Assembly: GCA_035489575.1 (NCBI GenBank) | Contig: DATHJY010000013.1 | Location: 91,346 to 155,345 of the forward strand | DNA: 64,000 nt | Origin: Verrucomicrobiia bacterium | GTDB taxonomy: Bacteria > Patescibacteriota > Saccharimonadia > Saccharimonadales > JAGQNK01 | Direction of reading: 5' to 3' | Part shown: positions 3,634 through 59,600 of the stretch, in pieces | Position numbering within the stretch: the first letter of the stretch is position 1 | How the letters are laid out: each line of letters begins with the position of its first letter | Program-made: the position numbers and the translations under genes | The notes under the pieces: generated by a model | What the model saw: the letters and a program-made list of their open reading frames with translations, nothing else | Database searches by the model: none | What the model was told of the DNA's origin: nothing

Positions 3634-4779
3634 TTATACCCGCTCTCCATAATTATTGTGCAGGGCGTGATTTTCGACAACCGTAAGCGCATCTGGCGTA
3701 GAGGTGCCAAAGGCGTGAGTTCCGTTGATGATAAGCTGCCTCACAACCCCTGGCAGCTCAGAAGGGTCAGCTTCTTTTACTACTTCTTCAAAAACTGTCT
3801 TTACATCGCCCGGTCGATTTAACTCGCTATATATAGGAGAGATAAACGTCATGTTACCGGTCACGTTCGGCATGGCGTCGCCTATCGCCTCGCCCAATTT
3901 TCCGCGAGCCATCGACAGCGGCAGGCGAATAACCTGCGTCATGAAGCGCTTCTCCAGGATGAGTCTGGCAACGCTTCTTGCAACTTCGGCATGCGATATA
4001 CCCTCGCTACGTATGCGGGCAGCTTCGGGGTCAAAGCCAGGCACACTTGCGTAAGCAAGAGCATGTTTCGCCTCACCATCAAGAAAATAATGTCTCATGC
4101 CCCGAAGCAATGCAATGGTTTCCAGGGCGGCTATGTTCGATTTTTCACCAACACGCAATTCGCGGGAGCCCGGAGAGTCAAATACACTGATAGCCTTCAC
4201 AGGCCGCTCTAGCTGGGCGGCCACCTCCAGTCCAACCAATCCACCTTCGGATCGAGCGCGAATAGTGAGCACATAGTCTTCGAAGGCCGAGGCCAGACCG
4301 CCCAGTACTACTTCGGCAAAAGCAGTGTGCCGACCAGAACGGGCCACTTCCTTAGACACAGCGCGCGGCAAAGGGTCAGACTCACCAGTGTTGGGGTGGT
4401 CAGATACCAGCAATCGCATGCCTGGACTCATTCTTAAAATACCGGCAATTTCCCGGATCATTGACTCGTCCCGACATCTGCCCCAGTTCATAAACAAGGC
4501 CGTGATCTCGCCCGAATCACTGTCGTCCCCCAAGATGGAGTAAGCTACTTGTCGGCCTTTTGGCCCACCTTTGTATGGCTTTTCGAATAGCTCACGTATT
4601 GCTACCACGTCAGGATCGGTTGCCGTGGGTGGGCTATCGTATTGCTCGGGCGGGACAAAAGCAAAGGGTTCTAGTTCCTCTACTTGACCACAAGTGTCGG
4701 GCGTGAAGCAACGTGACAGTATCTCTACCCCGTCGGTTAGATCATAATCAATAACATTCGTAAGCGCCTGTTCAGTCAT
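3634..4779 (-). CDS. Hypothetical protein, possibly a divergent alpha/beta-hydrolase fold
   Basis: 381-aa ORF located 5 nt upstream of the preceding hydrolase gene on the same strand. Its only hydrolase-like hint is IRARSEGGLVG. No family recognised. Confidence 0.4.
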   Translation of the reverse strand: MTEQALTNVIDYDLTDGVEILSRCFTPDTCGQVEELEPFAFVPPEQYDSPPTATDPDVVAIRELFEKPYKGGPKGRQVAYSILGDDSDSGEITALFMNWGRCRDESMIREIAGILRMSPGMRLLVSDHPNTGESDPLPRAVSKEVARSGRHTAFAEVVLGGLASAFEDYVLTIRARSEGGLVGLEVAAQLERPVKAISVFDSPGSRELRVGEKSNIAALETIALLRGMRHYFLDGEAKHALAYASVPGFDPEAARIRSEGISHAEVARSVARLILEKRFMTQVIRLPLSMARGKLGEAIGDAMPNVTGNMTFISPIYSELNRPGDVKTVFEEVVKEADPSELPGVVRQLIINGTHAFGTSTPDALTVVENHALHNNYGERV

Positions 4780-4842: not shown

Positions 4843-5304
4843 ATGGTGAAAAAGAAATCGCCCCAAACCAAACGAATAAGCAATCGACGCGCGCGCTTTG
4901 ACTACGATCTAGGCGATGGGTTAATCGTGGGCATCGCTTTGACCGGAGCAGAGACGAAGTCATTGCGCCGAGGACATGGCCATATTCGCGGTTCTTACGT
5001 AACTATCAAAAATGATGAACTGTGGCTCACCAACGCCACTATTACCGGAGATTCTAGCATACCTATATCTGAAGAGCAGCAAACCCGTAGCCGCAAACTG
5101 CTGGCAAAGCGTAAAGAAATTGCCGAATTGATAGCCGCCAAGCAGCAAGGTCAGACCATTGTTCCACTCGAGATATTAACCGGCAGTCGTTATATAAAAG
5201 TTCGTATCTCTTCAGGCCGTGGTAAAAAGCACTATGACAAACGACAGGTCCTGAAGCACAGAGACCAAGCCCGCGAGATGCAGCGAGCAATCAGTCAACG
5301 ATAG
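4843..5304 (+). CDS. smpB: SsrA-binding protein SmpB
   Basis: KRISNRRARFDYDLGDGLIVGIALTGAETKSLR...LLAKRKEIAELIAAKQQGQTIVPLEI...YIKVRISSGRGKKHYDKR matches the canonical SmpB layout. Confidence 0.9.
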   Translation: MVKKKSPQTKRISNRRARFDYDLGDGLIVGIALTGAETKSLRRGHGHIRGSYVTIKNDELWLTNATITGDSSIPISEEQQTRSRKLLAKRKEIAELIAAKQQGQTIVPLEILTGSRYIKVRISSGRGKKHYDKRQVLKHRDQAREMQRAISQR

Positions 5305-12005: not shown

Positions 12006-14588
12006 GTGGCAGTCTCGGTATTGGCCGGCATTGCTTTTGTGCCTTTTTTTGGGGGCCAGCAGGCCTCTGCCACTGTTAACCGCCAGATCAATTTCCAGGG
12101 GAAGATCGTCAACAAAACCGGCGGCACCAACATTACCAATGGTACGTACAACATGCAGTTCAAGATTTACTCTGGGGGAGACGGCGTGCCCGGTGGTGGC
12201 GACGAGACGCTTCTATGGACAGAATCTCGCCTGCGCAACAGCTCCCAAGGGGTTGTTTTTGCAGATGGCGTATTCCAGGTTAACCTCGGTTCGGTCACGA
12301 CACTACCGGGGAGTGTTGACTTCAACAACAGCACGCTCTGGCTGTCCATGGAGATGGGTAATACCAACGCCAGCTGCACACCCTTTGCCAGCTGCGCCCC
12401 AGATAGCGAGATGGACCCAATGGTGCGCTTCACAGCTTCACCGTACTCGTTCAACTCAGACCTCTTGGATGGCATAGACAGTGCTGCGTTTGGTCAGCTA
12501 GCCAGCAACCAGACCTGGACCGGCACGCAGACTCTGCAGCCAACTACTAACGTCAGTAGCCTAGTAGTCCAGCAGACATCCGTTGGCTCCCCAACCGCTG
12601 ACATCCTAAAGGTGAGTACCGTTAACGGAACAAACAACGCCATCCTGGTAATTGGACCAGCAGCAAACGAAGCCGCGGTGAGTATTACCTCTTTTGGCAC
12701 CGGTCGTGATATCTCTCTGAACAGCGCTGACCAGATTATCCTGAACGCAGCCAGCGGCACCAGCCTGACGAGTACCCTAGCCGGCACCTTGGACGTCCTG
12801 AATATCACCGGTACACCAAACACCAGCGCCAACACCGCCTACGGCCTGTACATCGACCAGGCCAACTCGGCCAATGGCAATGGCTTTGATGCTTCGCTGG
12901 TTATCGATAACTCCGACAGCAACTTGGCGATAGCCGACGGTATGTTGTTTATAAACGGTGGCGGGGGCTTTACCAGAGGAATAACTTTTGCCGGAGCCAC
13001 AACTGACGTAACAACTGCCTCGGGCGAGGATCTGACCGTGGCACCAGGAGGTACCGGCACGCTGACCCTGACTAGTGCCGGCACTGGAATTGCTGCAGTT
13101 GGTATCAATGTCACAGGATCGGGTGGCGATCTAGACATCAATGTCAACGATGCCATCACGGTTGACGCCGCCACTATGACCTTTACGCTTGCTGCCGGAA
13201 CCACCGACTTCACCATCGCCGGTCTGGACGCTGACTCTAACCTGATCCTGCCTGGCATGGCTGGAGCTAACGCTATCCTGTTTGCAGCTCCTACGACCGG
13301 AGTCGTAACCACCGCCGCCACGTCGACAGGATCACAGTGCCTGGTATCTGGTGCCGGTGCCAGCGGTACACCTACCTGGGGCGCATGTGGTGGAACAACC
13401 CCTGATCTCGATGCCGTGTATGCACAGTCCATAACAAACACTAACTTGAACATGGAGATAGACAACGCCGGGGGTCTGACCTTTGACCTCACAACCACCG
13501 GAGACTTTGCAGTGCGAGATGGCACGACAGCCTTTGCAACATTCGCCAACACCGGTGCTATTACTTTTGCGCCAACTTCTGGCCAAAGCTTGACCACCAC
13601 CATCGCCGGGGCGGGCACCTTGACCAACACAATCTCGGGCACCGGTAACGCTACCTTTAACCTGACTTCTACCGGTGATTTTGTAATCCAAGACAACGGC
13701 ACTGCCGCCTTGACCGTGGACGACTCAGGCAATGTAACGATAGGCGTATCCGATGCTACCGGCACACTTTTGAACCTAGATACCAAAACTACCGCCACGG
13801 ATCCTAGTGGTTCTGACGGTGCCATGTACTACAACTCTGACTCTAAGAATTTCCGCTGCCGACATAACGGCCTGTGGCAAGACTGTGACTTTGCATCATT
13901 GCGCTCGGAATGGATGTTCCAGGATGACTTTGTGACCAACACTGTCACAGCGGGAACAGGGGCAAGTCTGAGCAATGTGAGTAATGGCTGGACATTCGTA
14001 TCTATCGGCACCGGTGGCACAATAGCAAAAACCAATGTTGGCACTGACGCATCAAACCAAGATCGATTTGGTGTATTGCAAATGAACTCACCGGCTACCG
14101 TTACCACTGGCGTCCACCTGCGACAAGACAACACCAGTATGGCCGGCGTCCCGAGCAATCTGACAGTCGAGTTCGCCGTAGGACCAGTGAACGCCGCCGC
14201 TGCGACCGCGCAACAACAAACCGCCAGGGTGGGCCTGCTTGACTCGACAACCTCGGCTGCCCCCACAGACGGCATATACTTTATGTACACCGCAACAACA
14301 ACCGCCGGCAACTGGCAACGCTGTACCCAAACCACCTGCGTTGACACGGGCGTAGCGCGCACCACCACCGCCAACCAGTACCAGCGTTTTCGTATCCAAA
14401 CCAACTCGGCTGGTACCGGTGTAGAGTTCTTTATCAATGAAGCTTCGGTAGGTACTGCCTCTACTAATTTGCCTGGGGCCACCGCCAGCTATGGGCCAAC
14501 TATCAACTTTAATACCGTAGATGCTACAATTCGGCAGTGGAAGATAGATTATTTCCAGATCAAAAGAAACCTAACCACCCTCAGGTAG
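12006..14588 (+). CDS. Large (860 aa) secreted fibre/adhesin-like protein with C-terminal ConA/LamG-like jelly-roll
   Basis: The hydrophobic N-terminus ends ...GGQQASA. It is followed by the motif VNRQINFQGKIVNKTGGTNITNGTYNMQFKIYSGGDG...LLWTE. A long G/T/A/N-rich repetitive (beta-helix-like) middle follows. The C-terminus runs ...GAMYYNSDSKNFRCRHNGLWQDC then about 230 aa ending WKIDYFQIKR. Confidence 0.6.
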   Translation: MAVSVLAGIAFVPFFGGQQASATVNRQINFQGKIVNKTGGTNITNGTYNMQFKIYSGGDGVPGGGDETLLWTESRLRNSSQGVVFADGVFQVNLGSVTTLPGSVDFNNSTLWLSMEMGNTNASCTPFASCAPDSEMDPMVRFTASPYSFNSDLLDGIDSAAFGQLASNQTWTGTQTLQPTTNVSSLVVQQTSVGSPTADILKVSTVNGTNNAILVIGPAANEAAVSITSFGTGRDISLNSADQIILNAASGTSLTSTLAGTLDVLNITGTPNTSANTAYGLYIDQANSANGNGFDASLVIDNSDSNLAIADGMLFINGGGGFTRGITFAGATTDVTTASGEDLTVAPGGTGTLTLTSAGTGIAAVGINVTGSGGDLDINVNDAITVDAATMTFTLAAGTTDFTIAGLDADSNLILPGMAGANAILFAAPTTGVVTTAATSTGSQCLVSGAGASGTPTWGACGGTTPDLDAVYAQSITNTNLNMEIDNAGGLTFDLTTTGDFAVRDGTTAFATFANTGAITFAPTSGQSLTTTIAGAGTLTNTISGTGNATFNLTSTGDFVIQDNGTAALTVDDSGNVTIGVSDATGTLLNLDTKTTATDPSGSDGAMYYNSDSKNFRCRHNGLWQDCDFASLRSEWMFQDDFVTNTVTAGTGASLSNVSNGWTFVSIGTGGTIAKTNVGTDASNQDRFGVLQMNSPATVTTGVHLRQDNTSMAGVPSNLTVEFAVGPVNAAAATAQQQTARVGLLDSTTSAAPTDGIYFMYTATTTAGNWQRCTQTTCVDTGVARTTTANQYQRFRIQTNSAGTGVEFFINEASVGTASTNLPGATASYGPTINFNTVDATIRQWKIDYFQIKRNLTTLR

Positions 14589-16577: not shown

Positions 16578-16630
16578 CCACATATTTACAGGGGCGGGGT
16601 AAAAAGGTAGAATAGCAGGGTTATCGCTAT

Positions 16631-16705
16631 TCCCGGGTAGCTCAATGGTGGAGCAAGAAGCTGTTAACTTCGAGGTTGTCGGTTCGAGTCCGACCCCGGG
16701 AGCCA
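16631..16705 (+). tRNA. tRNA-Asn (anticodon GTT), CCA encoded
   Basis: Hand fold: acceptor TCCCGGG/CCCGGGA, D-arm GCTC..GAGC, anticodon loop CTGTTAA, T-arm GTCGG-TTCGAGT-CCGAC, discriminator G, then CCA. Confidence 0.9.
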
Positions 16706-16709
16706 AATA

Positions 16710-16738
16710 TTGACAAATAGCACGTTTTGTGCTATTTT
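16710..16738 (+). promoter_or_regulatory. Consensus promoter TTGACA-17-TATTTT with a spacer palindrome; leaderless start
   Basis: TTGACA at 16710-16715. The spacer contains AGCAC-GTTTT-GTGCT. The -10 is at 16733-16738. ATG 16745 lies exactly 7 nt after the -10. Confidence 0.6.
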
Positions 16739-16744
16739 ATATTT

Positions 16745-17677
16745 ATGAGTGCTGAATTAATTGTTCATTCGGAAGTTCCTCCTCTTACATGGCAAGAATT
16801 TATAGAAACGCATCCTGTTGGATCGATTGCTCTAGATGGGTACGTTGGCGAAGGTCCGCAGTATGAACCAGAAGGCCCCTATTTAAACGCGAATCACCAC
16901 GAGGGTGTTAAGCGCCTTGAGACACTGTCTACAGCACAGCAAATACTCATGAATGTGCGTATGGGCCTAGATAAAGCCTTTACACGAGATGGTGTTTTTG
17001 CACCAAAAGTTTATGTTAATGACTGCGATCAGGATGTTTGTGCTGCCTGGTATCTTCTAAACCACGTAGAGCAGGCTAAAACTGTTACCAACCCGACTCT
17101 GAACCGATTTATTAACGTAGCAGGCACCCTTGATGCCACCGCGGGCGCTTTCCCATACGACAGGGATCTTCGAATCTTAGGTGAACTTGCTTGGGTATTT
17201 GAACCCTACACGATGTTTAGAGCTAGTGGGGAAATGGCAAGTAAGGATAATGAACAATACCGATCAGTTATTCAGAGCGTAGAAGCTAGAATTCAGCAAC
17301 ATCTGGTGGGTGGAGGAGAGTCCGCAAAGATCGATGCTCGCTATAAACTTGTGGGTGGTGGTCAAGACTGGAAAATGATTGAGGAAGTTGGCAAAGATGG
17401 GCGCGTTGGCGCGTTAGTTGATGGCATAGATGCGTATGTAGCCGTTCAAGAATTACCCGGTGAACGCTGGCGCTACACAGTCGGGCGAAGATCAGAGTTT
17501 ATACCATTCGATGTTCCTGTTCTGATAGACAGACTTAACCAAGTTGAGGCCTGTGAAAAAGACAGGTGGGGTGGCGCAACCATTATAGGTGGTAGTCCTA
17601 GGGTTAGTGGCAGCAAATTAAGCCCAGCGAAAGTCGAGAAAGTCATCAACGAGTTCATTGCCGAAGCCGAAGCGTAA
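16745..17677 (+). CDS. Hypothetical protein (310 aa), island cassette 1
   Basis: Frame of ORF 16727..17677; ATG 16745 (MSAELIVHSEVPP...). No family recognised. Acidic/His clusters (NANHHEG, NDCDQD) might hint at a metal-dependent phosphoesterase, but this is unsupported. Confidence 0.5.
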   Translation: MSAELIVHSEVPPLTWQEFIETHPVGSIALDGYVGEGPQYEPEGPYLNANHHEGVKRLETLSTAQQILMNVRMGLDKAFTRDGVFAPKVYVNDCDQDVCAAWYLLNHVEQAKTVTNPTLNRFINVAGTLDATAGAFPYDRDLRILGELAWVFEPYTMFRASGEMASKDNEQYRSVIQSVEARIQQHLVGGGESAKIDARYKLVGGGQDWKMIEEVGKDGRVGALVDGIDAYVAVQELPGERWRYTVGRRSEFIPFDVPVLIDRLNQVEACEKDRWGGATIIGGSPRVSGSKLSPAKVEKVINEFIAEAEA

Positions 17678-17695
17678 GTTTCGAAGTACGAGCGC

Positions 17696-18073
17696 TTGGG
17701 ATCGTTACTAGCTGATTGCTATATCTCGCTTTATTGCGGTTATAACGTACTCTATCGTTGTGAGCCAAGCATTTACAAATACCACATTACGTTTTATTTG
17801 TCCTGCGAGTACGAGGGCTATTATGCTATCTGGAAAGATTTAGTCTCTCCTGATACAAAAATCGCTGAAGATAAAGCTGGCGCACTAAGTCGCGCAACCA
17901 CTCCTGAAGAAGCTGCAACCATCGAAAGAGTATTCGGTTATTGTGCAATCGACAGATTGTCAGTAGCTCAAGAAACACTCGATGATCCTCTTACGAGTAG
18001 AGGTGCAAAAATGGGTGCTTATATATCTAGAGATTCAGTGGCTCGGGGCATAGAACCATATCGTCTTTCTTAA
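17696..18073 (+). CDS. Doubtful ORF (TTG start) covering repeat copy A
   Basis: 125-aa ORF with no ATG until near its end. Its N-terminal part overlaps the 45-bp repeat. The C-terminal half looks protein-like (TPEEAATIERVFGYCAIDRLSVAQETLDD). Confidence 0.25.
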   Translation: MGSLLADCYISLYCGYNVLYRCEPSIYKYHITFYLSCEYEGYYAIWKDLVSPDTKIAEDKAGALSRATTPEEAATIERVFGYCAIDRLSVAQETLDDPLTSRGAKMGAYISRDSVARGIEPYRLS

Positions 18074-18133
18074 AGTTGCGAAATACGCCCATTAGAGAGG
18101 GCCAGCTAAAGACATTTGCTATACTAGGTTCAC

Positions 18134-18379
18134 ATGAGCACCGACGAATTCACCAAATTATTTCAATACCTGCAGCAGATGGATAGAAAAATTGAAAAAC
18201 AAACTGAAACCATGGCCACAAAAAACAACATAAACCAGATACTAAATCGCTTAGACTCGATTGAAAAACAATTAGAAATTTCTGAAGATGAACGGTTAGT
18301 CATGGGCCATCAACTAGACAGGCTTGATCGTTGGGTTCGTGAAGTAGCGGACAAAATTGGCTATAAGCTGACTGTTTAA
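18134..18379 (+). CDS. Small coiled-coil protein (81 aa)
   Basis: Heptad-like sequence MSTDEFTKLFQYLQQMDRKIEKQTETMATKNNINQILNRLDSIEKQLEISEDERLVMGHQLDRLDRWVREVADKIGYKL. Confidence 0.5.
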   Translation: MSTDEFTKLFQYLQQMDRKIEKQTETMATKNNINQILNRLDSIEKQLEISEDERLVMGHQLDRLDRWVREVADKIGYKLTV

Positions 18380-18522
18380 TTTTTAGCGAAGGGGGACTGG
18401 GACTCACCGTGCGCTGATCCAGGTACCTTCGGCGACCCCGAAACTTCATCTTTGAGAGCAAGTTCTCAAGAGAAGATTTCCTTGCAAAAGTCCACTGGAC
18501 TTTCTCACCCAGGAGCCAATTT

Positions 18523-18550
18523 TTGACAAATACCACTTTTGTGGTATTTT
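18523..18550 (+). promoter_or_regulatory. Consensus promoter TTGACA-16-TATTTT with a spacer palindrome; leaderless start
   Basis: TTGACA at 18523-18528. The spacer contains ACCAC-TTTT-GTGGT. The -10 is at 18545-18550. ATG 18557 lies 7 nt after the -10. It is 87% identical to the 16.7-kb copy. Confidence 0.6.
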
Positions 18551-18556
18551 ATTTTT

Positions 18557-18856
18557 ATGATTGAAAAATATGTGATCACAGACGGACCAGATAAAGGTCA
18601 CATTAAGGACATAGATATTGCTATGGACCTTGCTTACACCGAAGACGCTTGGCGAGAGGAAAATGGTGGAATTCCTATGAATCAACCGCCAGAACGCTTA
18701 GGTAAACCAGAGTTCCGCTTTCGGCAACTAATAAATAGTGAATTAAGTCGCTTAATTCTAGAGGATATTGTATTAACAACAAAAAATGAACTTAACGAAA
18801 TTTATAATACTGAAGCCGCAAGGCAGGCTGATCCTGAGGAAAACAATGAGGATTGA
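18557..18856 (+). CDS. Hypothetical protein (99 aa), island cassette 2
   Basis: Frame of ORF 18539..18856; ATG 18557 (MIEKYVITDGPDKGHIKDIDIAMD...). Acidic C-terminus. Confidence 0.5.
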   Translation: MIEKYVITDGPDKGHIKDIDIAMDLAYTEDAWREENGGIPMNQPPERLGKPEFRFRQLINSELSRLILEDIVLTTKNELNEIYNTEAARQADPEENNED

Positions 18857-18868
18857 CTACGTTATAGA

Positions 18869-19039
18869 ATGGTTAATCGTTTGGCATCTTTAGGTGAAGA
18901 TAACGGTTTTGATGACCAAACCTGCTACGAAATTCTTGATATGCCACTCCCAGAAGCTTTTGAGACTGCATACAGCTACTTAACTCAAGCAGGTTTAGAG
19001 GCAGACACCATTCTTGCGGATTATACGGAGGCAGATTAG
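18869..19039 (+). CDS. Small acidic ORF (56 aa)
   Basis: My translation: MVNRLASLGEDNGFDDQTCYEILDMPLPEAFETAYSYLTQAGLEADTILADYTEAD. It starts 13 nt after the previous stop and is below the ORF-track length cutoff. Confidence 0.3.
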   Translation: MVNRLASLGEDNGFDDQTCYEILDMPLPEAFETAYSYLTQAGLEADTILADYTEAD

Positions 19040-19106
19040 TAGACCAGGTCCAACTTTATCGCAGTTATAACTTCCTCTATCGTGCTGAGCCAAAGATTAT
19101 GAACTA

Positions 19107-19136
19107 AAAAGCACCTCTGTAAGTTGAGGTGTTTTT
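19107..19136. terminator. Rho-independent terminator (A-tract / GC stem / T-tract, potentially bidirectional)
   Basis: AAAAAGCACCTC-tgtaagtt-GAGGTGTTTTT. Confidence 0.6.
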
Positions 19137-19204
19137 AATTTGGGATTGCCCCTTCATAAAGCGGATAGCAAAACTTTTCGACCAGATTGATTTAAGAACA
19201 AGCA

Positions 19205-19234
19205 TTGACAAACTGTATATTACAGAAATATACT
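19205..19234 (+). promoter_or_regulatory. Consensus promoter TTGACA-18-TATACT with CTGTA-tat-TACAG operator-like palindrome; leaderless brnT
   Basis: TTGACA at 19205-19210 and TATACT at 19229-19234. ATG 19241 lies 7 nt after the -10. Confidence 0.6.
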
Positions 19235-19240
19235 AAGTTT

Positions 19241-19546
19241 ATGGATATCTTGCCCGAGCCGCTGTCCTTCCAATGGGATAAAGGCAATATCCCTAAGAAC
19301 CTCCAAAAGCATAACGTGACTTATCAAGAAGCTGAGGAAATATTTGTCAACGATCCGTTTATCTTAGCCAGAGACAAAGATCATTCTAAGAGCGAGCGTC
19401 GTTATTGGGTATTAGGTCAGACTAAATCAAATCGAAAGCTCTTTGCAGCTTTTACGATTAGGGGCACTAAAATAAGAGTGATATCCGTTAGGGATATGAC
19501 ACAAGCAGAGGAGGATGTATATGAAGACTATGAAACAAATTCCTGA
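19241..19546 (+). CDS. brnT: BrnT-family toxin (DUF497 ribonuclease toxin)
   Basis: MDILPEPLSFQWDKGNIPKNLQKHNVTYQEAEEIFVNDPFILARDKDHSKSERRYWVLGQT...RVISVRDMTQAE shows the typical FEWDxxKxxxNxxKHGVxFxEA pattern. Confidence 0.8.
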   Translation: MDILPEPLSFQWDKGNIPKNLQKHNVTYQEAEEIFVNDPFILARDKDHSKSERRYWVLGQTKSNRKLFAAFTIRGTKIRVISVRDMTQAEEDVYEDYETNS

Positions 19547-19799
19547 GTTCAAGAACGAGCAAGAAGAAGCCGAGTTCTGGCGCACCCACAACTCTACAGA
19601 ATACGTAGATTGGTCAGATGCCAAGAAAACGGTATTCCCCAACCTCAAGCCAACTACCGAATCGATATCTCTGCGGCTACCGTCACCACTGCTGGCTCGC
19701 CTTAAAGAGTTGGCAAATGATCAAGATGTACCTTATCAGTCGCTTATGAAGGTATACCTAAACGATCGCGTAAAGCACGAGCTTAAGTCCAAGAAATAA
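19521..19799 (+). CDS. brnA: BrnA-family antitoxin (RHH/CopG-like C-terminus)
   Basis: MKTMKQIPEFKNEQEEAEFWRTHNSTEYVDW...SISLRLPSPLLARLKELANDQDVPYQSLMKVYLNDRV. GAGGAGG lies 6 nt upstream of ATG 19521. The gene overlaps the brnT 3-prime end. Confidence 0.75.
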   Translation: MKTMKQIPEFKNEQEEAEFWRTHNSTEYVDWSDAKKTVFPNLKPTTESISLRLPSPLLARLKELANDQDVPYQSLMKVYLNDRVKHELKSKK

Positions 19800-19961
19800 C
19801 TTTCTTTTACGGCAGACCAGAAAATTTGGAAACTGTCCATTAGGTCGAGCCAAACAAGGACTGTCCCCTAGGGGGGCGGTTTTTGTTTGGCTTTCGAGCC
19901 GGCCCCGAAGCAAGACAACGCACCAGCTTTAGCTGACAGAAGGTTGTCAGATATCAATTGG

Positions 19962-21299
19962 TTATGGAGCGGCGAAAACTTCTATTTCCGAGAGACCTAT
20001 ATTCTGTGTGGTACCACTAACCGTTTTGATAACGAGCTTAACACTTGTTGCCGTTATGTTGGGGAAATTTAGCGTAACGCCTGTGCCGTCATTGTTTAGT
20101 GCGCCCACATCCATAGTAGCGATAGTACCCCCTACATTAAACCTAATGTCAGCACTGGTTATCTGGTCGGTACTATTAGGCCGATCATGAAGGACTATCT
20201 TGTTTATGGTTCGTGCTTGTGGCCAAACCAGTTTTAGCCAGCTACCAGCTTTGCCACCCCAAGTAGCCCATTCTTTTGTGTGGTCAGTTGGGTACCCCGT
20301 AGCAAATCCATCGACAGCCTTTCCTGCAAGTTGATCGGACCAGGGAGATTCTGACGAAGTAGTTAAGACTGACGAAGGTGCAATGTTCGTAAACGCCCCC
20401 GACCCACCGTTCTCTGACCGGGTGGTGTATTGCCTGAGTAGCCATTGAGCATAGGTTCCAGTGCCACAGGCTTCATCACTTGTGCAAACAAAATCGTGTG
20501 CCCCGTAAGCATAAAAAGCATTCTTTTTAGCTGTCCAATCCGGTCCCGATACATTTTCTGGCTTGGAAGATATGCCATACCCCTGGTAAGCAGTTACCCC
20601 ATGCGTGTTTGCGAACTGCTGATGAGCTGCTCTGGCAAAGTATGAAGCAGTATGATGGTCACTGTGATCACCGTCACCAAATACGCCGTTAAAGTCCTGG
20701 GTGTATAGCTCATCAGGCTGGTAGCCATTCATCAACGCCAACAGGGTAGCTATAAGCTGTGGCTTAGTGTAGCCAGAAGTTCCATTAACAGCCCATAGCT
20801 CAGATATCGAGCCGAGCCACAGCTTCTGCAAACTGGTGTTATTGGTGGCAGCAAAGCCGCCGCCCTCACCGTTACCATCTGGCAACCGCAGGAATGTTAA
20901 AGATACGGTCGGGTGATTCGTCATTGTAAATACCGGTATCGGATGACCAGGTACACCTGCGTCAATCTCTTGCCATAAGTTCGCTACGCCAGCCATAGAG
21001 GCATAAGCCGCCTTGGCACCCGCCTCGCGTCCCAGCCAATAGTTAGCGTCCCAGCCAGCATCACCGGCAGTGACAAATACCGTTCTTACACATTTGCCAT
21101 TTTGGATATCGTGCCATAGATCGGGATTCTGGAATAGCAAATCGTCATCTTCATGCGCCACAACACTCATGACAGAACCATTCGGACAATCCACTGCACG
21201 CACAGAACTGCCGCTAGATGCTATCAAGCTCACTAAAAACATACTTAGAATCAACCCAATATAAAATCTATTGCCAATATCACTGAATAATTTCTTCAC
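19962..21299 (-). CDS. Secreted PIG-L/LmbE-family deacetylase fused to a discoidin (F5/8 type C)-like domain
   Basis: N-terminal TM/signal. VVAHEDDDLLF resembles the AHPDDE motif. HSDHH is also present. The C-terminal ~130 aa (...KEWATWGGKAGSWLKLVWPQARTINKIVLHDRP...IGLSEIEVF) are discoidin-like. Confidence 0.6.
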   Translation of the reverse strand: MKKLFSDIGNRFYIGLILSMFLVSLIASSGSSVRAVDCPNGSVMSVVAHEDDDLLFQNPDLWHDIQNGKCVRTVFVTAGDAGWDANYWLGREAGAKAAYASMAGVANLWQEIDAGVPGHPIPVFTMTNHPTVSLTFLRLPDGNGEGGGFAATNNTSLQKLWLGSISELWAVNGTSGYTKPQLIATLLALMNGYQPDELYTQDFNGVFGDGDHSDHHTASYFARAAHQQFANTHGVTAYQGYGISSKPENVSGPDWTAKKNAFYAYGAHDFVCTSDEACGTGTYAQWLLRQYTTRSENGGSGAFTNIAPSSVLTTSSESPWSDQLAGKAVDGFATGYPTDHTKEWATWGGKAGSWLKLVWPQARTINKIVLHDRPNSTDQITSADIRFNVGGTIATMDVGALNNDGTGVTLNFPNITATSVKLVIKTVSGTTQNIGLSEIEVFAAP

Positions 21300-37310: not shown

Positions 37311-37586
37311 TTAGTTATCTTTTTTGATAAGCTTGTAGGTTTTGTCTAAGTAAATCAGATTTTGTATGAGCTGTTGCAGCACCGCTGCCTCGGCACGGTT
37401 CTCTACGGTCAGCTCATCACTAATAGAATCGAGCAAGGTAGCCAAAGTTATAAAATAATCACCAGATCGTACGTGGACGATAAGATCCTCTAGCTCACGA
37501 GTGTCGCTACCATCGTGAAGAAGCCAGGTGGGTGCCGAATCATGTGCCAACACCGCCGAAGGGGGATCTAGCGCATAATCAGCCAC
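37311..37586 (-). CDS. Small hypothetical protein (91 aa) downstream of radC
   Basis: Frame of ORF 37311..37673. GTG 37586 overlaps the radC stop (cGTGGCTGA). The sequence reads MADYALDPPSAVLAHDSAPTWLLHDGSDTRELEDLIVHV... Confidence 0.35.
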   Translation of the reverse strand: MADYALDPPSAVLAHDSAPTWLLHDGSDTRELEDLIVHVRSGDYFITLATLLDSISDELTVENRAEAAVLQQLIQNLIYLDKTYKLIKKDN

Positions 37587-38337
37587 GGGGCGTCTCTTCC
37601 ATAATGCTGGCGAATGAATCTTGGTTGATAATAAGGTGATCCAGAATATCAATACCCAACACCCGGCCGGCATCCACCAGCTGGGCAGTGACTATACGGT
37701 CAGCGGCTGTGGGCTCTAGGCTGCCAGAAGGATGGTTATGAGCAATGATAATTGCCACAGCGCCATAGATAAGCGCAGGCTGAAATACTTCGCGGGGGTG
37801 CACGATGTTTGCTGTCAGGCTGCCTACCGAGATGACCTCGTCATGGATAACTTCATGGCGGCTATTTAAATAGAGTCCCCGAAGTTGTTCCTTCTGGCTG
37901 GTGCCCATGTCCTTGAGGTACACATGAGCCTGCTTGGCGCTGCGTACATAGGTAGCCTTGCCTTGCCGGCTCAAGAAGTATCGGCGGCCCAGCTCAAAGC
38001 TGGCAACTATTTGACAGGCCTTGCCAAGGGGAATATTGAGCGCCTCCGATAGCTTGGCCGGGTCGGTCTCGTTCATGATGGCAGTCTCGCCGTATTCTTT
38101 GAGGATGCGGTGGGCCATAGACAAGACATTTTCTTTTCTAGTGCCCACATTCAGGAGTACCGCTACTAGCTCGGCCACGCCAAGAGCCTTTGGGCCGAGC
38201 AGTTGCAACTTTTCCCGCGGCTTTTCATCGGTGGGTAGGTCGCTGAGGGGTGTCAGCTCATATTCTTTTTCACCATCTGCAAGCATGAAGATCCCTCGGT
38301 CATGCAAAAGATATTTTTCGTCTACCACCAATGTCAT
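37579..38337 (-). CDS. radC: RadC-like JAB/MPN domain protein
   Basis: EKPREKLQLLGPKALGVAELVAVLLNVG...IIAHNHPSGSLEPTAADRIVTAQL...ILDHLII. TATAAT (38349-38344, minus) lies 6 nt before ATG 38337, consistent with a leaderless mRNA. Confidence 0.8.
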   Translation of the reverse strand: MTLVVDEKYLLHDRGIFMLADGEKEYELTPLSDLPTDEKPREKLQLLGPKALGVAELVAVLLNVGTRKENVLSMAHRILKEYGETAIMNETDPAKLSEALNIPLGKACQIVASFELGRRYFLSRQGKATYVRSAKQAHVYLKDMGTSQKEQLRGLYLNSRHEVIHDEVISVGSLTANIVHPREVFQPALIYGAVAIIIAHNHPSGSLEPTAADRIVTAQLVDAGRVLGIDILDHLIINQDSFASIMEETPRG

Positions 38338-38636
38338 GGCGGCATTATAGCAAGCGGTTTTGTGAGGACTCTATCGCAATGGACTTGGCTTAATCTTTAT
38401 TTAACAATCCGAATATAGTCAGGTATTAGAGTTGAGTTTTGTAATAAGCAGTAAGTACTCCTGATTTGAAGTCATCGTTGTCTACACGATCCTAAAGCTA
38501 TCCGTGCAGAAAGGTTCGTAGCATTCTCTTCTGTAAAGTGAATATAGCGCATGATTTTGAAGCAACCATAACAGCCTATCGGGCACATCAAAACAGTCTA
38601 GTATAGTATCAAGTAACGCTTAAAGGAGTAGCCTGG

Positions 38637-38969
38637 ATGAACTTCGATCAAATCGTCAGTAGAGCACTAGAGCTAAGAGAGAAGTACGACCAACTAAATG
38701 AAACGCAACGCGGTGTCCGCTGGAACGAACAGCAGTTAATGGCAGGATTCGTAGGAGACGTGGGTGATCTGTCAAAAATCATCATGGCCAAGAGCGGCCT
38801 GCGTGCTATGGACGATGTAGATAAAAAACTAACACACGAGCTCAGTGACTGCCTTTGGTCCATCCTTGTCATAGCCAGCAAGTACAAAATTGACCTGGCA
38901 ACAGAGTTTATGAAGACAATGGATGAACTCGACGCCCGAATCAAAAATGAACTAGCATCAGAAGGATAA
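38637..38969 (+). CDS. MazG-like nucleotide pyrophosphohydrolase (small all-alpha NTP-PPase)
   Basis: ...MAGFVGDVGDLSKIIM...LTHELSDCLWSILVIASKYKIDL shows the E/D-rich helices typical of the MazG-like family. AAAGGAG is present upstream. Confidence 0.6.
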   Translation: MNFDQIVSRALELREKYDQLNETQRGVRWNEQQLMAGFVGDVGDLSKIIMAKSGLRAMDDVDKKLTHELSDCLWSILVIASKYKIDLATEFMKTMDELDARIKNELASEG

Positions 38970-39066
38970 AACTCATCTTTAATTGAGAGTCTGCTGGCTT
39001 AAATATAGCTTTGCCACGATCACCGCCCCTTAACAATCACTTAATATTCTTGAGCTGTCGGGTAGA

Positions 39067-40293
39067 CTATTTATGGGTTTTAATCTTGGAGGTTAGCAGC
39101 AGAAACTCTTGATCTTTGGTTTTTGTAGCCTGCATCATGTCAAAGTCATTCCTCTCAAACTGCTCAATGAGCCCCGGGCCGTCGTGGTGCCAGTATCGCC
39201 AAACAGTGATCAACTGGCCTTTATTGATGTGGATATATTTGAAACCTTGTGGGAAGGTAAACTTTACCGTGAGTGCCATCTTGGGGGTTATACTGATGGA
39301 TCTGGCTTGTTTCTTTTCGTCGAAATTTTGCACGACATCGTAAAGATCTTCGTCGATGTTCAAAAAATCTAGAATCATTCTGTGGTTATATGCAAGCTTC
39401 TGATTTGCGGAGGTGGTGAAATCAAAATAACGTCGCGAATTAACAGTATCAAGCTTGGCACTATATACAAGCAAATCGTTGATGCCCAAACTGTTATTAA
39501 TGGCCCACAACGCCTGATCCGGAGTCCTGAGATTGCCCAGGGTTGCCCCTAGCAACAGTACTATATTTACTGGCGTATCGCTTTCATCTTTACCAATAGC
39601 ATCTTCGGTGAATAAATCGTCAAATCGTTCCCGGCTAAAGTCCCGAGCATACCCCTCGAACTTAACTCGACCGTCAAACCACGTGCCGATATTCTTCTCC
39701 GCAATCTGCAGCATTTCCTTGCTGATGTCAAGAGTAACGTACCGCTTCAACTTTCCAAGCTTAAGGAAATGCTCAAGGAGTCCCTTTGCTGGCATGCCGT
39801 TTCCAGGCCCTAGGTCTACAATGTTGACATACTTATGGCCCCCAACCAGATGGTCTAATGTATCAGTGCTAGCCCCTAGCAGGTCAATGGTTGCTGTCAG
39901 CATATTACGAGTGCCTTCATTGGCAAGCCGGTTTGCGTAATCATCCCAGTAGGTCGCCCCACCATTAACATAGCTGTACGGCAGAGGTATCTCGTGATGA
40001 ATGGTGAGATGAGAAATAATATCTAGTATCTGTTTGTGGTCAAACGTCTCGTAAAACTCAGGCTTGGGCGAGATAGTTTTGAGTGCACGCTTGTTTTTGT
40101 ATTTTCTGCCTTTCTCAATGAGTTGCTCTATGAGGATAGTATTCTTGGTGACATTGGCCACATAGAAGCGTCCCTCTTTTTCGTGTAATTGTAAGTCTAG
40201 CTTGCCTTCTTGAGTAGCCTGAACCCAATTGCGTACAGATTTCTCTGAGACATTATAGATCTTTGCTAATTCGGTATTCTTAAAAAACTTCAT
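39067..40293 (-). CDS. HTH domain fused to an EgtD-fold (histidine N-alpha-methyltransferase-like) SAM-dependent methyltransferase
   Basis: N-terminal HTH: NTELAKIYNVSEKSVRNWV. Methyltransferase core: NIVDLGPGNGMPAKGLLEHF...YVTLDISKEMLQIA...LLLGATLGNLRTPDQALWAI...LLVYSAKLD... follows the EgtD-family block order. Confidence 0.5.
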   Translation of the reverse strand: MKFFKNTELAKIYNVSEKSVRNWVQATQEGKLDLQLHEKEGRFYVANVTKNTILIEQLIEKGRKYKNKRALKTISPKPEFYETFDHKQILDIISHLTIHHEIPLPYSYVNGGATYWDDYANRLANEGTRNMLTATIDLLGASTDTLDHLVGGHKYVNIVDLGPGNGMPAKGLLEHFLKLGKLKRYVTLDISKEMLQIAEKNIGTWFDGRVKFEGYARDFSRERFDDLFTEDAIGKDESDTPVNIVLLLGATLGNLRTPDQALWAINNSLGINDLLVYSAKLDTVNSRRYFDFTTSANQKLAYNHRMILDFLNIDEDLYDVVQNFDEKKQARSISITPKMALTVKFTFPQGFKYIHINKGQLITVWRYWHHDGPGLIEQFERNDFDMMQATKTKDQEFLLLTSKIKTHK

Positions 40294-40345
40294 TGATACT
40301 CCACAATTATCTTAGTACACCAGCCTCAAGAACATAAAAAAAATG

Positions 40346-40375
40346 TTGACATGTTCCGATTTTAAAACGTATCAT
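40346..40375 (+). promoter_or_regulatory. Promoter TTGACA-18-TATCAT
   Basis: TTGACA at 40346-40351 and TATCAT at 40370-40375. It would give a leader of about 140 nt before ATG 40523. Confidence 0.5.
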
Positions 40376-40403
40376 GACTGTAAAGCACCTTTGCAGACGA
40401 CTT

Positions 40404-40446
40404 TCTTGGAGAGAAGGGAGCTGTTCTGCATTGAATCTCTCCAAGA
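40404..40446 (+). promoter_or_regulatory. Leader hairpin (11-bp perfect stem, 21-nt loop)
   Basis: TCTTGGAGAGA (40404-40414) pairs with TCTCTCCAAGA (40436-40446). Confidence 0.4.
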
Positions 40447-40522
40447 TCAGTCAATGATACGAACACATAAGGTAACATTGTAACATATAGAACGAGCCAA
40501 GCTCGGGAAAGAGGGAAGACTT

Positions 40523-57047: not shown

Positions 57048-58271
57048 TTATTCGTGGCGGAGAGCGTCAATGGGGCGCATGCGAGCTGCCTTGAGGGCGG
57101 GCGTAATGCCAAAGACCATGCCAATGCCAACAGACACCAGGGTGGCAAAGGCCATGATCTGCCAAGTAAGTACTGGTGTCAGGTTGGTAAATATCCGGAG
57201 CAGGTAATTAGTAAACAACGAGAACAGCAGGCCCAGCAGGCCACCCACAAAGCTCAGCAGGGCCGCCTCTGTCAAAAACTGCCCAAGGATCTGACGATTG
57301 GTTGCGCCAATAGCCTTGCGCACGCCGATCTCGCGGGTACGTTCGGTGACTGACACCAACATGATATTCATGATACCAATGCCAGCCACCACCAACGCAA
57401 TGCCCGCGATAGCAGCAATAGCAGCGGTGAGCAGGTCGAGCACTCGTTGCGCCGAAGCCTGGATGTCTTCTTGCCTTAGGACGGTAAAGTCAACCTGACC
57501 AGAATGGGTATTGGCCAACGAAGTCTTGATAGCCTCGGCCGCCAAAGTGGCCTGGCCGGGTGTGTCTGGACGGGCTAACACTTGGTATAGCTGTACCTGG
57601 CCATTGTCTAGTTTTTTGCCAGAGTCGTAGGGAATAAAAATGGCGTTATTGTAGTCGGCGTTAGGGATAAGGGGACTAACCTGGAACTCCTCGAACACTC
57701 CACGCACCACAAACTGGCGACCCCGGACGGTAAATAATTTGCCTATGGGTACGTTCTCTTGAAAGAGCTGCTCGGCCACCCGCTTGCCGATGATTGCTAC
57801 GTCACGATCTGACTCGCTCTTATTAAAGAAAGCACCGTATTCGAGTTTTTTGTTGATTGCTTGGGGCGCTTCTTCCGTAGTGGCAATCACCAGCGCTTCT
57901 GTAAATTCGCGGTCATGATTTTTGGGCACACCGTTGACATAAGCAAAGGGAATGGCGCCCTTGACGCCATTGGCGGCGTCTATAGTGGCGTAGTCGCTCT
58001 CGCTCAGGAAACCAGTATTCAGGCCACCGAATAGTCCGATCAGAGCCCCTGTATCGTTCTGTTTAGAGATCCGACCAGGACGGACCGTGATCAGATCGGC
58101 ACCACCGTTATTGATCTGGCCCACAATCTGCTGTTTGGCGCCTTCGCCCAAACTGACAATGGTTACCACGCTGACTATACCAATAACCACCCCCAACATA
58201 GTCAGCAAACTGCGCCAACGCGAGGAACGTATGGCTTCGCGGGCCATTTTGAGGTTGCTGGGGCCAAACAT
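57048..58271 (-). CDS. ABC transporter permease (MacB/FtsX-type with large extracytoplasmic domain)
   Basis: N-terminal MacB-like region: AIRSSRWRSLLTMLGVVIGIVSVV. C-terminal FtsX region: ERTREIGVRKAIGAT..I..QFL.EA. Confidence 0.8.
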   Translation of the reverse strand: MFGPSNLKMAREAIRSSRWRSLLTMLGVVIGIVSVVTIVSLGEGAKQQIVGQINNGGADLITVRPGRISKQNDTGALIGLFGGLNTGFLSESDYATIDAANGVKGAIPFAYVNGVPKNHDREFTEALVIATTEEAPQAINKKLEYGAFFNKSESDRDVAIIGKRVAEQLFQENVPIGKLFTVRGRQFVVRGVFEEFQVSPLIPNADYNNAIFIPYDSGKKLDNGQVQLYQVLARPDTPGQATLAAEAIKTSLANTHSGQVDFTVLRQEDIQASAQRVLDLLTAAIAAIAGIALVVAGIGIMNIMLVSVTERTREIGVRKAIGATNRQILGQFLTEAALLSFVGGLLGLLFSLFTNYLLRIFTNLTPVLTWQIMAFATLVSVGIGMVFGITPALKAARMRPIDALRHE

Positions 58272-59164
58272 CAGGCTTTTTTGCCTTTTTTGGCGGGAGC
58301 TTTGTATTTGGTACGTTTTGTGGTGGTCTTTTTCTTGGCTTTGGCGGCTGGCTTTTGCTTGCCAGAGCTTAATTTGTCGGGAAGAGTTTTCATGAGGGTA
58401 GATACACCAGCCAGGTCGTCTTCTATGGTTGCACGGGGCAGGAAGTACATGCTGCGCCGTACTGATTCGTGCAGTTCGCCCACGGCCGACTGCTCGTCTT
58501 TGACGATGGCACCGTCGTGCATGAACACCACACGGCTGGCAAAGCGGGTCAGGCCAGGGTTGTGTGTCACCAGCAGAATGGTGTTGCCGGCTTTGTGGAT
58601 GTCGCTCAGTAGCTCCATAACCAGCCGGCTAGAGGCACTGTCTAGGTTGCCAGTTGGCTCGTCCGCAATAATAATGTTGGGATTGTTTATGAGGGCACGG
58701 GCAATAGCCACCCGCTGCGCCTGGCCACCAGATAGTTGGCGGGGCATGAAGTACTCGCGGTCAGCCAGACCAACTCGCTCTAGAATTTCGGCAGCCCTTT
58801 TTTGGCGGCGGGCCTGGGTAGTACCTTTGTAGGCCAGGGGCAATGCCACATTGTCTACAACCGTCAATTTGGGCAGTAGGTTGAACGACTGGAACACAAA
58901 GCCAATGGTGTCACGACGCACCTTGGCCTGGCGGCGAGCACTCAGGCGCTCGGCGGGCTTGCCGTTTAATTTGTAGGTACCATGCGTAGGAGTGTCTAAC
59001 AGTCCGATGAGGTTCATCAGAGTAGATTTGCCTGATCCGCTCGGTCCCATGACCGCCACGAACTCACCGGCGTCAATACTGAGATTGACCTCGTCAAGTG
59101 CAACGGTAGTAGCATCACCGAAGCCGAAAAGCTTGCTGACATCTTGTAATTGGATAACTGGCAC
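58271..59164 (-). CDS. ABC transporter ATP-binding protein (MacB/LolD-type) with a Lys-rich C-terminal tail
   Basis: Walker A GPSGSGKST, Q-loop, signature LSGGQAQRVAIARAL, Walker B IIIADEPT. The extra tail reads ...KQKPAAKAKKKTTTKRTKYKAPAKKGKKA. GTG start. The stop shares one nt with the permease ATG. Confidence 0.85.
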   Translation of the reverse strand: MPVIQLQDVSKLFGFGDATTVALDEVNLSIDAGEFVAVMGPSGSGKSTLMNLIGLLDTPTHGTYKLNGKPAERLSARRQAKVRRDTIGFVFQSFNLLPKLTVVDNVALPLAYKGTTQARRQKRAAEILERVGLADREYFMPRQLSGGQAQRVAIARALINNPNIIIADEPTGNLDSASSRLVMELLSDIHKAGNTILLVTHNPGLTRFASRVVFMHDGAIVKDEQSAVGELHESVRRSMYFLPRATIEDDLAGVSTLMKTLPDKLSSGKQKPAAKAKKKTTTKRTKYKAPAKKGKKA

Positions 59165-59479
59165 TATACATTAGTGTACCCTTTGATGATCCCCATCTTC
59201 AAGGTGTTAGTGATGTAATTTTTAGGATATAATGCCATGAAGCCAAAAATGTCTACAAAGCAGCTCGCTGCTTTGCCCGATTGGCGAGAGGATTCGCCAA
59301 TCGGAAGAGGAACCGGCTTGCTGAGGTAGCTAGATTTGCCGGGCAAACTTGTTTTGCCGGCGAATCAGCTACCTCAGCATTACACGTTGGCAAACGAGCG
59401 ATCAGCGAAGGTTGTATGCAGAACCCAAGAAATCCCAGTCCTTGAAAAAGAAAAGATTTCTTGGCGTGAAGCTATACGA

Positions 59480-59567
59480 GGAGGGGTCGCCTAGTGGCCT
59501 ATGGCGCACGCTTGGAAAGCGTGTTGGGTGCAAGCCCTCGAGGGTTCGAATCCCTCTCCCTCCGCCA
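59480..59567 (+). tRNA. tRNA-Ser (anticodon GGA), long variable arm, CCA encoded
   Basis: Hand fold: acceptor GGAGGGG/TCCCTCC, anticodon stem CACGC/GCGTG with loop TTGGAAA, variable arm TTGGGTGCAAGCCCTC, T-arm GAGGG-TTCGAAT-CCCTC. Confidence 0.9.
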
Positions 59568-59570
59568 AAT

Positions 59571-59600
59571 AAAAAAGCCTGACTTTGTTGGGCTTTTTTA
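59571..59600 (+). terminator. Rho-independent terminator after tRNA-Ser
   Basis: AAAAAAGCC-tgactttgttg-GGCTTTTTT. Confidence 0.6.

Follow-up and report, generated by a model that had tools for sequence, protein, structure and literature searches.

A compact, cassette-like array of small genes at the 3' end of a tRNA-Asn gene in a Saccharibacteria genome

We analysed a stretch of 64,000 nt (64 kb, hereafter the window) that is 100% identical to part of the 317-kb European Nucleotide Archive (ENA) metagenome contig ERZ27268082 k141_182245, and in it an AT-rich island of about 3.2 kb that begins directly behind a tRNA-Asn gene. An earlier note on this DNA, made from the sequence alone, had read the island as the footprint of site-specific integration into the tRNA gene. 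The analysis described below leads to a related but different picture. The tRNA-Asn gene is best described as an insertion hot spot with a compact, integrase-less, cassette-like array, the units of which are joined at the 7-nt sequence GAGCCAA.

The anchor of the array is an intact tRNA-Asn gene with anticodon GTT (16631-16705, + strand; found by ARAGORN and scoring 63.6 bits against the Rfam tRNA family), which is attB-like in its position and is preceded by a promoter-like site at 16585-16613 detected by promoter scan. Pfam identifies a K+ channel upstream of the tRNA and a PIG-L/DUF7402 deacetylase downstream of the island, the latter encoded by a gene convergent to the array (19962-21299, - strand). 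Between 16706 and 19853 the GC content is 0.429, the lowest among all 3.1-kb stretches of the window (mean 0.506, sd 0.025). The AT-richness asserted in the earlier note is thus genuine, but the figure of 35% GC quoted there is only local, the lowest value over 1 kb being 0.392. The array closes with a hairpin that had also been pointed out before and that proves very stable (19847/19848-19892, 21-bp arms, -47.1 kcal/mol, z -5.59); it would act as a two-way terminator facing the convergent PIG-L gene.

The first open reading frame (ORF) of the island, ORF1, encodes a protein of 310 aa (16745-17677, + strand) with 517 full-length homologues, 46-86% identical to it, among Saccharibacteria and other members of the Patescibacteria; the motifs HH (51-52) and NDCDxD (92-97) are invariant in the family. 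ORF1 has no Pfam match and no sequence match in the PDB, and at the sequence level it does not fall within the DHH/DHHA1 families. Its AlphaFold2 model (predicted local distance difference test score, pLDDT, 93.3) displays the two-domain DHH-DHHA1 fold, with the pAp phosphatase 8a8k, RecJ2, the TM1595 phosphodiesterase, and GdpP as top Foldseek matches in the PDB (probability 0.96-1.0, E 4.5e-5 to 1e-3) at low TM-scores (0.3-0.4), as expected if the orientation of the domains differs. In ORF1 the HH motif precedes NDCDxD, which is not the usual order of DHH motifs. Judged by its model, ORF1 is a predicted DHH/DHHA1-fold phosphoesterase-like protein, and this fold rules it out as the missing recombinase of the array. 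Members of the ORF1 family often adjoin tRNA genes, lying 40 nt after tRNA-Asn in the window, approximately 200 nt after tRNA-Met in locus L073, and just after an apparent tRNA 3' end at the start of contig L021. Fifteen homologues reside in IMG/VR viral contigs of 13-485 kb, several of them with tRNA genes that include suppressor-type tRNAs, and the homologue in L099 lies within a cluster of 16 tRNAs. These settings provide hints that the function of the family may be related to tRNA or small RNA.

The remaining genes are smaller and all lie on the + strand. ORF2 (17798-18073) starts at TTG and encodes a small cysteine-containing protein of 91 aa with the motif CExEGYC. Its homologues form four clusters, and end-to-end alignment with the best of them (P0133, 91 aa, 67% identical) argues that ORF2 is a real gene. 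ORF3 (18134-18379, 81 aa) has only sub-threshold Pfam matches and a 34% identical relative in L012. A role for ORF3 in defence was considered and disregarded, as its PADLOC matches, the only ones in the island, are marginal (E ~1e-3 to 5e-3). ORF4 and ORF5 together form one gene of approximately 160 aa (18557-19039) interrupted by an in-frame TGA at 18854-18856. Both halves match the homologues in L077, L079, and L083, the TGA aligns with TGG in L077 and L079, and the 12 homologues of ORF4 are 157-168 aa long, such that the gene is either a recent pseudogene or read through; no viral relatives of the family were found. The last two genes encode a BrnT toxin (19241-19546; PF04365, 79.2 bits, E 2.9e-22) and an overlapping BrnA/CopG antitoxin (19515-19799; PF12441, 113.7 bits, E 6.7e-33). 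Both scores exceed the Pfam cut-offs and the toxin gene comes first, which bears out the toxin-antitoxin pair proposed in the earlier note. That the island otherwise encodes only orphan proteins does not hold, given the relatives of ORF1 through ORF4. In the island, PHROGs gives no match of note except to the BrnT toxin family and Pfam gives no phage gene, a content that does not qualify it as a phage or phage satellite.

These genes are punctuated by a short recurring sequence. GAGCCAA comprises the six terminal bases of the tRNA (A72, G73, CCA) and one more base, and it occurs on the + strand at 16700-16706 (junction core 1), 17762-17768 (core 2), 18513-18519 (core 3), 19087-19093 (core 4), and 19847-19853, the fifth copy lying inside the array-closing hairpin. 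Every copy is intergenic. Five copies in 3.2 kb were reached in none of 300 first-order Markov simulations of the window, and four copies in 2% of them. The five intergenic copies divide the island into four units of 574-1062 nt: alpha (16707-17768, GC 0.46), which contains ORF1; beta (17769-18519, GC 0.43), with ORF2 and ORF3; gamma (18520-19093, GC 0.39), comprising ORF4 and ORF5; and delta (19094-19853, GC 0.41), the BrnT/BrnA unit. Small units joined at a common core in this way are an arrangement characteristic of integron-type cassette arrays. Units alpha and gamma are moreover alike at both ends, each carrying one conserved element, P, at its 5' end and another, D3, at its 3' end.

The P element consists of a -35 hexamer TTGACA, a spacer of 16-17 nt that contains a 9-bp hairpin, an extended -10 sequence TGnTATTTT, and an ATG after a further 6 nt. 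Because the ATG lies 6 nt past the -10 hexamer, transcripts from P should be leaderless, starting at the ATG; a strict scan of the 64 kb recovers only five or six arrangements of this leaderless type, three of them in the island. P1 (16707-16747, + strand; TTGACA-N17-(TG)nTATTTT-N6-ATG, spacer hairpin 16715-16737, fold z -2.45) is the promoter of ORF1, and P4 (18520-18559, + strand; TTGACA-N16-TGgTATTTT-N6-ATG, fold z -4.09) is the hairpin-promoter of ORF4. A degenerate P (TTTACAAATACCAC...) designated P2 stands at 17769-17800 on the + strand (nhmmer E 0.0018), where the TTG start of ORF2 occupies the position of the ATG, and resembles the junction D3-GAGCCAAG-TATTTACAAATAC of L079. The promoter of unit delta, P5 (from 19205, + strand), reads TTGACA-N18-TATACT-N6-ATG and has a degenerate core, GAACAAG, 3 nt before its -35 hexamer. 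In the seven P elements compared, which come from five genomes, pairing of the stem amounts to 81%, as opposed to 27-62% for slid partners, and two of the stem pairs show compensatory changes, with a covariation score reached by 7 of 500 shuffles. Since the hairpin and the T run that follows it score as an intrinsic terminator, P could both end incoming transcription, whether of the tRNA or of the previous unit, and start that of the next unit. P1 is thus likely to double as the terminator of tRNA-Asn.

The D3 element has the form (A)GTTATAAC-N15-GAGCCAA and occurs at the 3' ends of unit alpha (D3a, 17729-17768, + strand) and unit gamma (D3b, 19054-19093, + strand), the two copies being 85% identical over 40 nt (blastn E 4.5e-4). 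A terminator-like hairpin followed by a T run lies just behind unit gamma (19107-19136, + strand). A hidden Markov model (HMM) of D3 was run against 685 kb, made up of the window and the Saccharibacteria or tRNA-Asn loci fetched for comparison. It finds two copies in the island, three in L079, and one in L020, and nowhere else; one of the L079 copies was absent from the build of an earlier D3 model. D3 does not fold better than shuffled sequence (z -1.0 and -1.2), it contains no attC-like imperfect palindrome, and it belongs to no Rfam family, and we therefore rejected it as a structured RNA or attC-like hairpin. Scans of IMG/VR with the D3 pattern and with the GAGCCAA-P pattern returned 30 and 22 matches, respectively, all of them chance occurrences in unrelated phages with no extended similarity. 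An 18-mer match in the viral locus L072 was likewise dismissed as chance, as it falls inside a phage tape-measure gene.

The first P element is part of a direct repeat. The sequence at 16695-16748 recurs at 18508-18560, 47 of 54 positions being identical, as the earlier note had reported, with a single gap in the alignment (blastn-short search of the window, E 1.5e-7). The 64 kb contain no other close copy. The second copy lies inside the island, however, so that the repeat encloses only about 1.8 kb (ORF1-ORF3) and does not bound the 3.2-kb segment as had been proposed. Only the first 12 nt of the repeat derive from the tRNA, namely CCCGGGAGCCAA at 16695-16706 and, as a relic of the tRNA-Asn 3' end that contains junction core 3, CCCAGGAGCCAA at 18508-18519 (+ strand; 11 of 12 bases match). 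Such a partial-tRNA direct repeat is what elements that target tRNA genes leave behind as attL and attR. Further upstream, similarity is at background level; a decayed second tRNA ahead of the second copy was considered and rejected, as similarity ends 12 nt from the tRNA end and neither ARAGORN nor Rfam finds anything there. The other 42 nt of the repeat are the two related promoters P1 and P4, each like the promoter of its own gene family elsewhere. P4 matches the promoter behind tRNA-Asn in L077, and P1 resembles promoters that stand at ORF1 homologues in L019, L020, L073, and L087, including places where the tRNA is not near. On these grounds the 54-nt repeat reads as a 12-nt duplication of the tRNA end fused to two related, gene-specific promoters, and the crossover that separates the two promoters appears to have lain at or just 5' of GAGCCAA. 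Its earlier interpretation as an integration footprint consequently survives for the tRNA-end duplication, as illustrated by L077/L078 and by further copies in L019 and L020, but not for the 42 of 54 bases that are promoter rather than att duplication.

Comparisons with related genomes indicate how these pieces have been combined. In L077/L078, an intact homologue of ORF4 (77% identical) directly follows a complete tRNA-Asn gene by way of ...GGAGCCAAAATTGACTAAATGCCACTTTTGTTGTATTTTATTTTTATGATTGAA, which corresponds to P4 and the start of the gene. Because the ORF4 homologue abuts tRNA-Asn there, ORF1-ORF3 (approximately 1.8 kb) separate the tRNA in the window from what is left of an older tRNA/ORF4 junction. 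L077/L078 can hence act as an 'empty-site' state for the proximal 1.8 kb, though ORF4 is only 77% identical between them and the window, and the region upstream of the tRNA differs. Behind its ORF4 homologue, L077 continues with GTTCTGAAC-N14-GAGCCA and then a terminator, as though the unit had entered directly behind the tRNA, ahead of the tRNA terminator. In L079-L082, whose ORF4 homologue is 65% identical, D3-GAGCCAAG-P stands ahead of the gene and a second D3, ending in GAGCAAAG, behind it; L079 has a third D3 1.4 kb further on. When the ORF4 units of the window, L077, and L079 are aligned, homology begins at GAGCCAA, upstream of which lie a tRNA relic (window), a full tRNA-Asn (L077), and a D3 (L079). 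On the 3' side, the window and L079 remain homologous across D3 as far as GAGCCAA in the window and GAGCAAA in L079.

Further arrays contain ORF1 homologues. L020 possesses a tRNA-Asn identical to that of the window and, 2.2 kb behind it, an ORF1 homologue. The interval contains a 13-nt tRNA relic (CGACCCCGGGAGC) with a P-type leaderless promoter immediately after it, and the sequence GCTCTAAC-N15-GAGCCAA-TCC-ATTTACAAA ahead of an acetyltransferase gene. In L019 the homologue belongs to a 2.8-kb module that has 18-26-nt copies of the 3' end of that genome's own tRNA-Asn and a 138-nt repeat at its flanks, and other modules at that locus carry rve-type and Y1-type transposase genes. As a background measure, we scanned metagenomes with the 25-nt tRNA 3' end. 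Among the 50 unrelated loci recovered, none of which has a homologue of a window protein, five have extra same-strand copies of the terminal tRNA 12-mer downstream of tRNA-Asn, and none has copies on the opposite strand. A search with the beta-lactamase-like neighbour protein, taking one genome per species, gave 14 Saccharibacteria loci that are syntenic for an 860-aa protein, the beta-lactamase-like gene, and a 200-aa gene. These loci are too distant to serve as an empty-site test, as none matches the window from the K+ channel onward, and a tRNA-Asn is nearby only in L013.

The reading that best accommodates these observations is serial site-specific insertion at the tRNA-Asn terminus by a recombinase encoded elsewhere, to which we assign a probability of about 0.5. 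Under this scheme, a unit would exist as a circle that carries D3-GAGCCAA-P as its attP, and this attP would recombine with GAGCCA(A) at the end of tRNA-Asn through the action in trans of a recombinase whose gene lies outside the window. Each newly arriving unit would displace the older ones away from the tRNA. Gamma would formerly have stood next to the tRNA, with beta and then alpha arriving later, and the 12-nt tRNA relic before P4 would mark the older junction.

Several points weigh against serial insertion. No recombinase or integrase is found by Pfam in the island, in the annotated region at ~6.2-31.3 kb, or in 20 further ORFs of the window, which upholds the earlier note on its absence, and none stands beside the arrays of L020, L077, and L079. 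No inverted core-binding sites are evident around GAGCCAA. The independent GAGCCAA events number fewer than five, since the P pair and the D3 pair are each mutual copies, and the last copy (19847), within the terminator stem, may be due to chance. ORF1 looks like a conserved or housekeeping enzyme rather than typical cargo, and its homologues in L087 and L074 keep a P-type promoter with no tRNA or GAGCCAA nearby, so that P could in part be a shared regulatory signal. Finally, none of the units recurs in identical form in a second context, and exact matches to the ORF1 and ORF4 proteins are confined to the source genome; the homologues are 65-86% identical, which makes any movement old; and the comparison covers approximately four metagenome-derived genomes, none of them a near-identical strain with a different array, so that no true empty site is among them.

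A bolder proposal is that the array belongs to an undescribed integron-like system, built from cassettes of one or two genes with P at the 5' end, D3 at the 3' end, and D3-GAGCCAA-P as attP, which would be inserted serially at tRNA-Asn by a recombinase encoded elsewhere. We entertain this proposal tentatively and consider the odds to be clearly against it.

The layout might alternatively have arisen by shuffling through homologous recombination, in which case P and D3 would be ordinary promoter, terminator, or 3' elements shared among genes, and the units would have been rearranged by RecA crossovers or Campbell-type insertion. This process would account for the lack of a recombinase. The repeats form blocks of 40-55 nt that are 82-88% identical, one crossover anywhere in the 54-nt block would yield the observed layout, and P-type promoters accompany ORF1 homologues in unrelated contexts. 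Against this stand the positions of the breakpoints. From one context to another, homology is lost at the 7-nt GAGCCAA rather than at scattered points within P or D3, and GAGC(CA) terminates every tRNA relic in the window, L020, L077, and L079. RecA also makes poor use of tracts of 40-55 nt that are 85% identical. On balance we regard homologous recombination as an unlikely source of the array.

It is less probable still that nothing has moved at all. In that case, P1 and P4 would be paralogues, leaderless promoters kept alike by a common regulatory constraint, the GAGCCAA upstream of each would belong to the surroundings of the promoter, its likeness to the tRNA end would be a positional coincidence, and the AT-richness would reflect small, weakly constrained genes. 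GAGCCAA does precede the -35 hexamer at a fixed distance of 2-4 nt in the window, L020, L077, and L079, as does GATCCAA in L013, and P1 is about as similar to the promoters of ORF1 homologues as it is to P4. If the repeat were merely a common promoter, as the earlier note had allowed, it should recur upstream of many unrelated genes; P-type promoters do precede several, but mostly in arrays or beside tRNA-Asn. A promoter constraint, moreover, does not predict the five additional tRNA bases (CCCAG) of the second copy, the 13-nt relic of L020, or the full tRNA that occupies the same position in L077. D3 ends in the same 7-mer on the far side of genes, at their 3' ends, a place that has no need of a promoter (at 19087 a terminator comes next), and the contexts of the homologues differ in every genome examined.

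The earlier note had suggested a decayed or satellite-type island, or else two tandem insertions. The duplication of the tRNA 3' end, the low GC, the toxin-antitoxin pair, and the missing integrase are all what a single classical 3.2-kb element (a prophage, conjugative element, or island) would retain after losing its integrase and most of its genes. However, no more than 1.8 kb lies within the repeat, genes of phage or conjugation type are absent, and each gene or gene pair comes with a promoter of its own and with shared end elements. ORF4 adjoins the tRNA in another genome, and ORF1 is widely conserved and enzyme-like. A single decayed element bounded by the repeat is accordingly very improbable, while the tandem insertions and the 'satellite-type' label of the earlier suggestion come close to the array of about four units described here.

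Least probable of all, and by our estimate far-fetched, is insertion by a single-strand Y1 HUH transposase of the IS200/IS605 type, enzymes that recognise end-proximal hairpins and place the element on the 3' side of a short target: the P hairpin with its compensatory changes could be a left end, D3 a right end, the same short target-like sequence lies on both sides, and a Y1_Tnp gene shares the L019 module with the ORF1 homologue, but that gene has flanking hairpins of its own and looks like a separate insertion sequence, D3 has no significant fold (z about -1), and no Y1 gene occurs in the window, L020, L077, or L079.

Serial insertion at a tRNA has precedents with which the array can be compared. 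Integrative elements at tRNA 3' ends typically share ~40 nt of the tRNA (bioRxiv 10.1101/2020.12.28.424599). Like these elements, the island exhibits an intact tRNA, same-strand copies of its 3' end downstream, an AT-rich variable segment, and toxin-antitoxin cargo; unlike them, it shares only 7-13 nt, lacks the integrase by which a complete integrative element is defined, and is divided into units of 0.6-1.1 kb with one or two genes. In the tycheposon islands of Prochlorococcus, serial insertions at one tRNA site push older elements inward and leave partial tRNAs and degraded remnants scattered, although the tycheposons themselves are many kilobases long and encode a tyrosine recombinase and replication genes (bioRxiv 10.1101/2020.12.28.424599). 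The array resembles them in its streamlined genome, its tRNA seed, and its apparent serial insertion, but lacks a recombinase or replication module and has units with the short conserved ends P and D3. Such tRNA-seeded serial-integration islands appear to be the closest analogues of the array.

The array also shares several features with integrons. Integrons and clusters of attC sites lacking integron-integrases (CALINs) are head-to-tail arrays of small cassettes with a 7-nt core, a conserved 3' element, and entry proximal to the anchor, and chromosomal integrons include toxin-antitoxin cassettes that carry promoters of their own. The array shares the head-to-tail small units, the 7-nt core, the 3' element, and a toxin-antitoxin unit, and would share entry next to the anchor, its BrnT/BrnA pair being an ordinary member of the family in the distal unit. 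It differs in that its anchor is a tRNA end rather than attI, its core is GAGCCAA rather than GTTRRRY, D3 lacks an attC-like fold, and every cassette has its own promoter; with no IntI, attI, GTTRRRY core, or attC fold found, it is not a member of the integrons. Recombination in trans is known from cis-mobilizable elements (CIMEs), which in streptococci occupy the 3' end of fda and use the integrase of an integrative conjugative element (ICE), and from integrative mobile elements exploiting XerCD (IMEX) at dif, both of which lack an integrase. The array has in common with them att-like flanks, the absence of a recombinase gene, and tandem accretion at one site, whereas the target sites differ and their recombinase is known. 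Searches of the literature yielded no account of integron-like arrays or of islands linked to tRNA genes in Saccharibacteria or Patescibacteria.

Other observations concern the locus and its relatives. The NCBI entries identical to P0001 and P0121 are labelled 'MAG TPA: Verrucomicrobiae bacterium'; the relatives of the locus are all Saccharibacteria, and those of the beta-lactamase-like neighbour protein are all genome bins of Candidatus Saccharibacteria or Saccharimonadales at 40-55% identity. The public bin behind the 'Verrucomicrobiae' label is probably misassigned. Contigs L003 and L002 from two other samples are 100% identical to the window and end at 16687 and 19926, within 35 nt of the outer array borders, possibly through strain variation or mere assembly breaks. 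We discounted these ends as evidence, because branching of the assembly graph at a shared tRNA and a strong hairpin suffices to explain them. Two stretches of L019 (3815-4120 and 9650-9880) are dense in tRNA-Asn fragments; 3'-end copies lie at about 4003, 7067, and 9854, an anticodon-to-T-arm copy at 4089-4118, and there is, by eye, an apparent inverted T-arm fragment. The rve transposase gene and the IS200-like Y1 transposase gene of L019 belong to this region too. In L020, smpB is directly followed by tRNA-Asn, with macB, an ABC ATPase gene, and tRNA-Ser approximately 8 kb further on. The same anchors lie some 52 kb apart in the window (4843-5304 and 57048-59567), with tRNA-Asn 11 kb from smpB, making the interval from smpB to tRNA-Ser highly variable between the two genomes.

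GC-rich non-coding stretches of 120-200 nt follow tRNA genes or relics in the window (18385-18507), L019 (3880-4000), L020 (5830-6000), and L073 (7840-7940), with the short motifs CGTAGG and TTCGAGCA in common, as judged by eye. They may constitute a small repeat family or a non-coding RNA; Rfam gives no match to the copy in the window. At window positions 59480-59960, a GC-rich non-coding stretch of about 300 nt lies behind tRNA-Ser(GGA) and the terminator of that tRNA, with a possible tRNA T-arm-like fragment on the opposite strand (GGGGATTCGAACGGGAG, by eye) and then one of the few other leaderless-type promoters of the window (ATG at 59936). This region may be a second tRNA-linked scar. 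A second low-GC stretch at 38000-40500 (0.43-0.46) contains a RadC-like gene (37579-38337, - strand) and a gene for a 408-aa protein resembling S-adenosylmethionine (SAM)-dependent methyltransferases (39067-40293, - strand). The 860-aa Thr/Gly-rich, surface-like protein encoded at 12006-14588 is best conserved in its C-terminal 300 aa (58-77%), and partial paralogues lie near its homologue in the relatives L016-L018.

Saccharibacteria and other Patescibacteria have very small genomes in which gene gain is poorly documented. If the array was built by site-specific insertion, it would mark tRNA-Asn as a defined hot spot, with P and D3 as defined end sequences; these can be searched for throughout the phylum and might serve as an integration site in the few culturable strains. 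The terminator hairpin inside a leaderless promoter would in itself be a compact expression signal of potential use. Were the integron-like system to prove true, these tiny genomes would possess a dedicated, insulated slot for acquiring and expressing genes.

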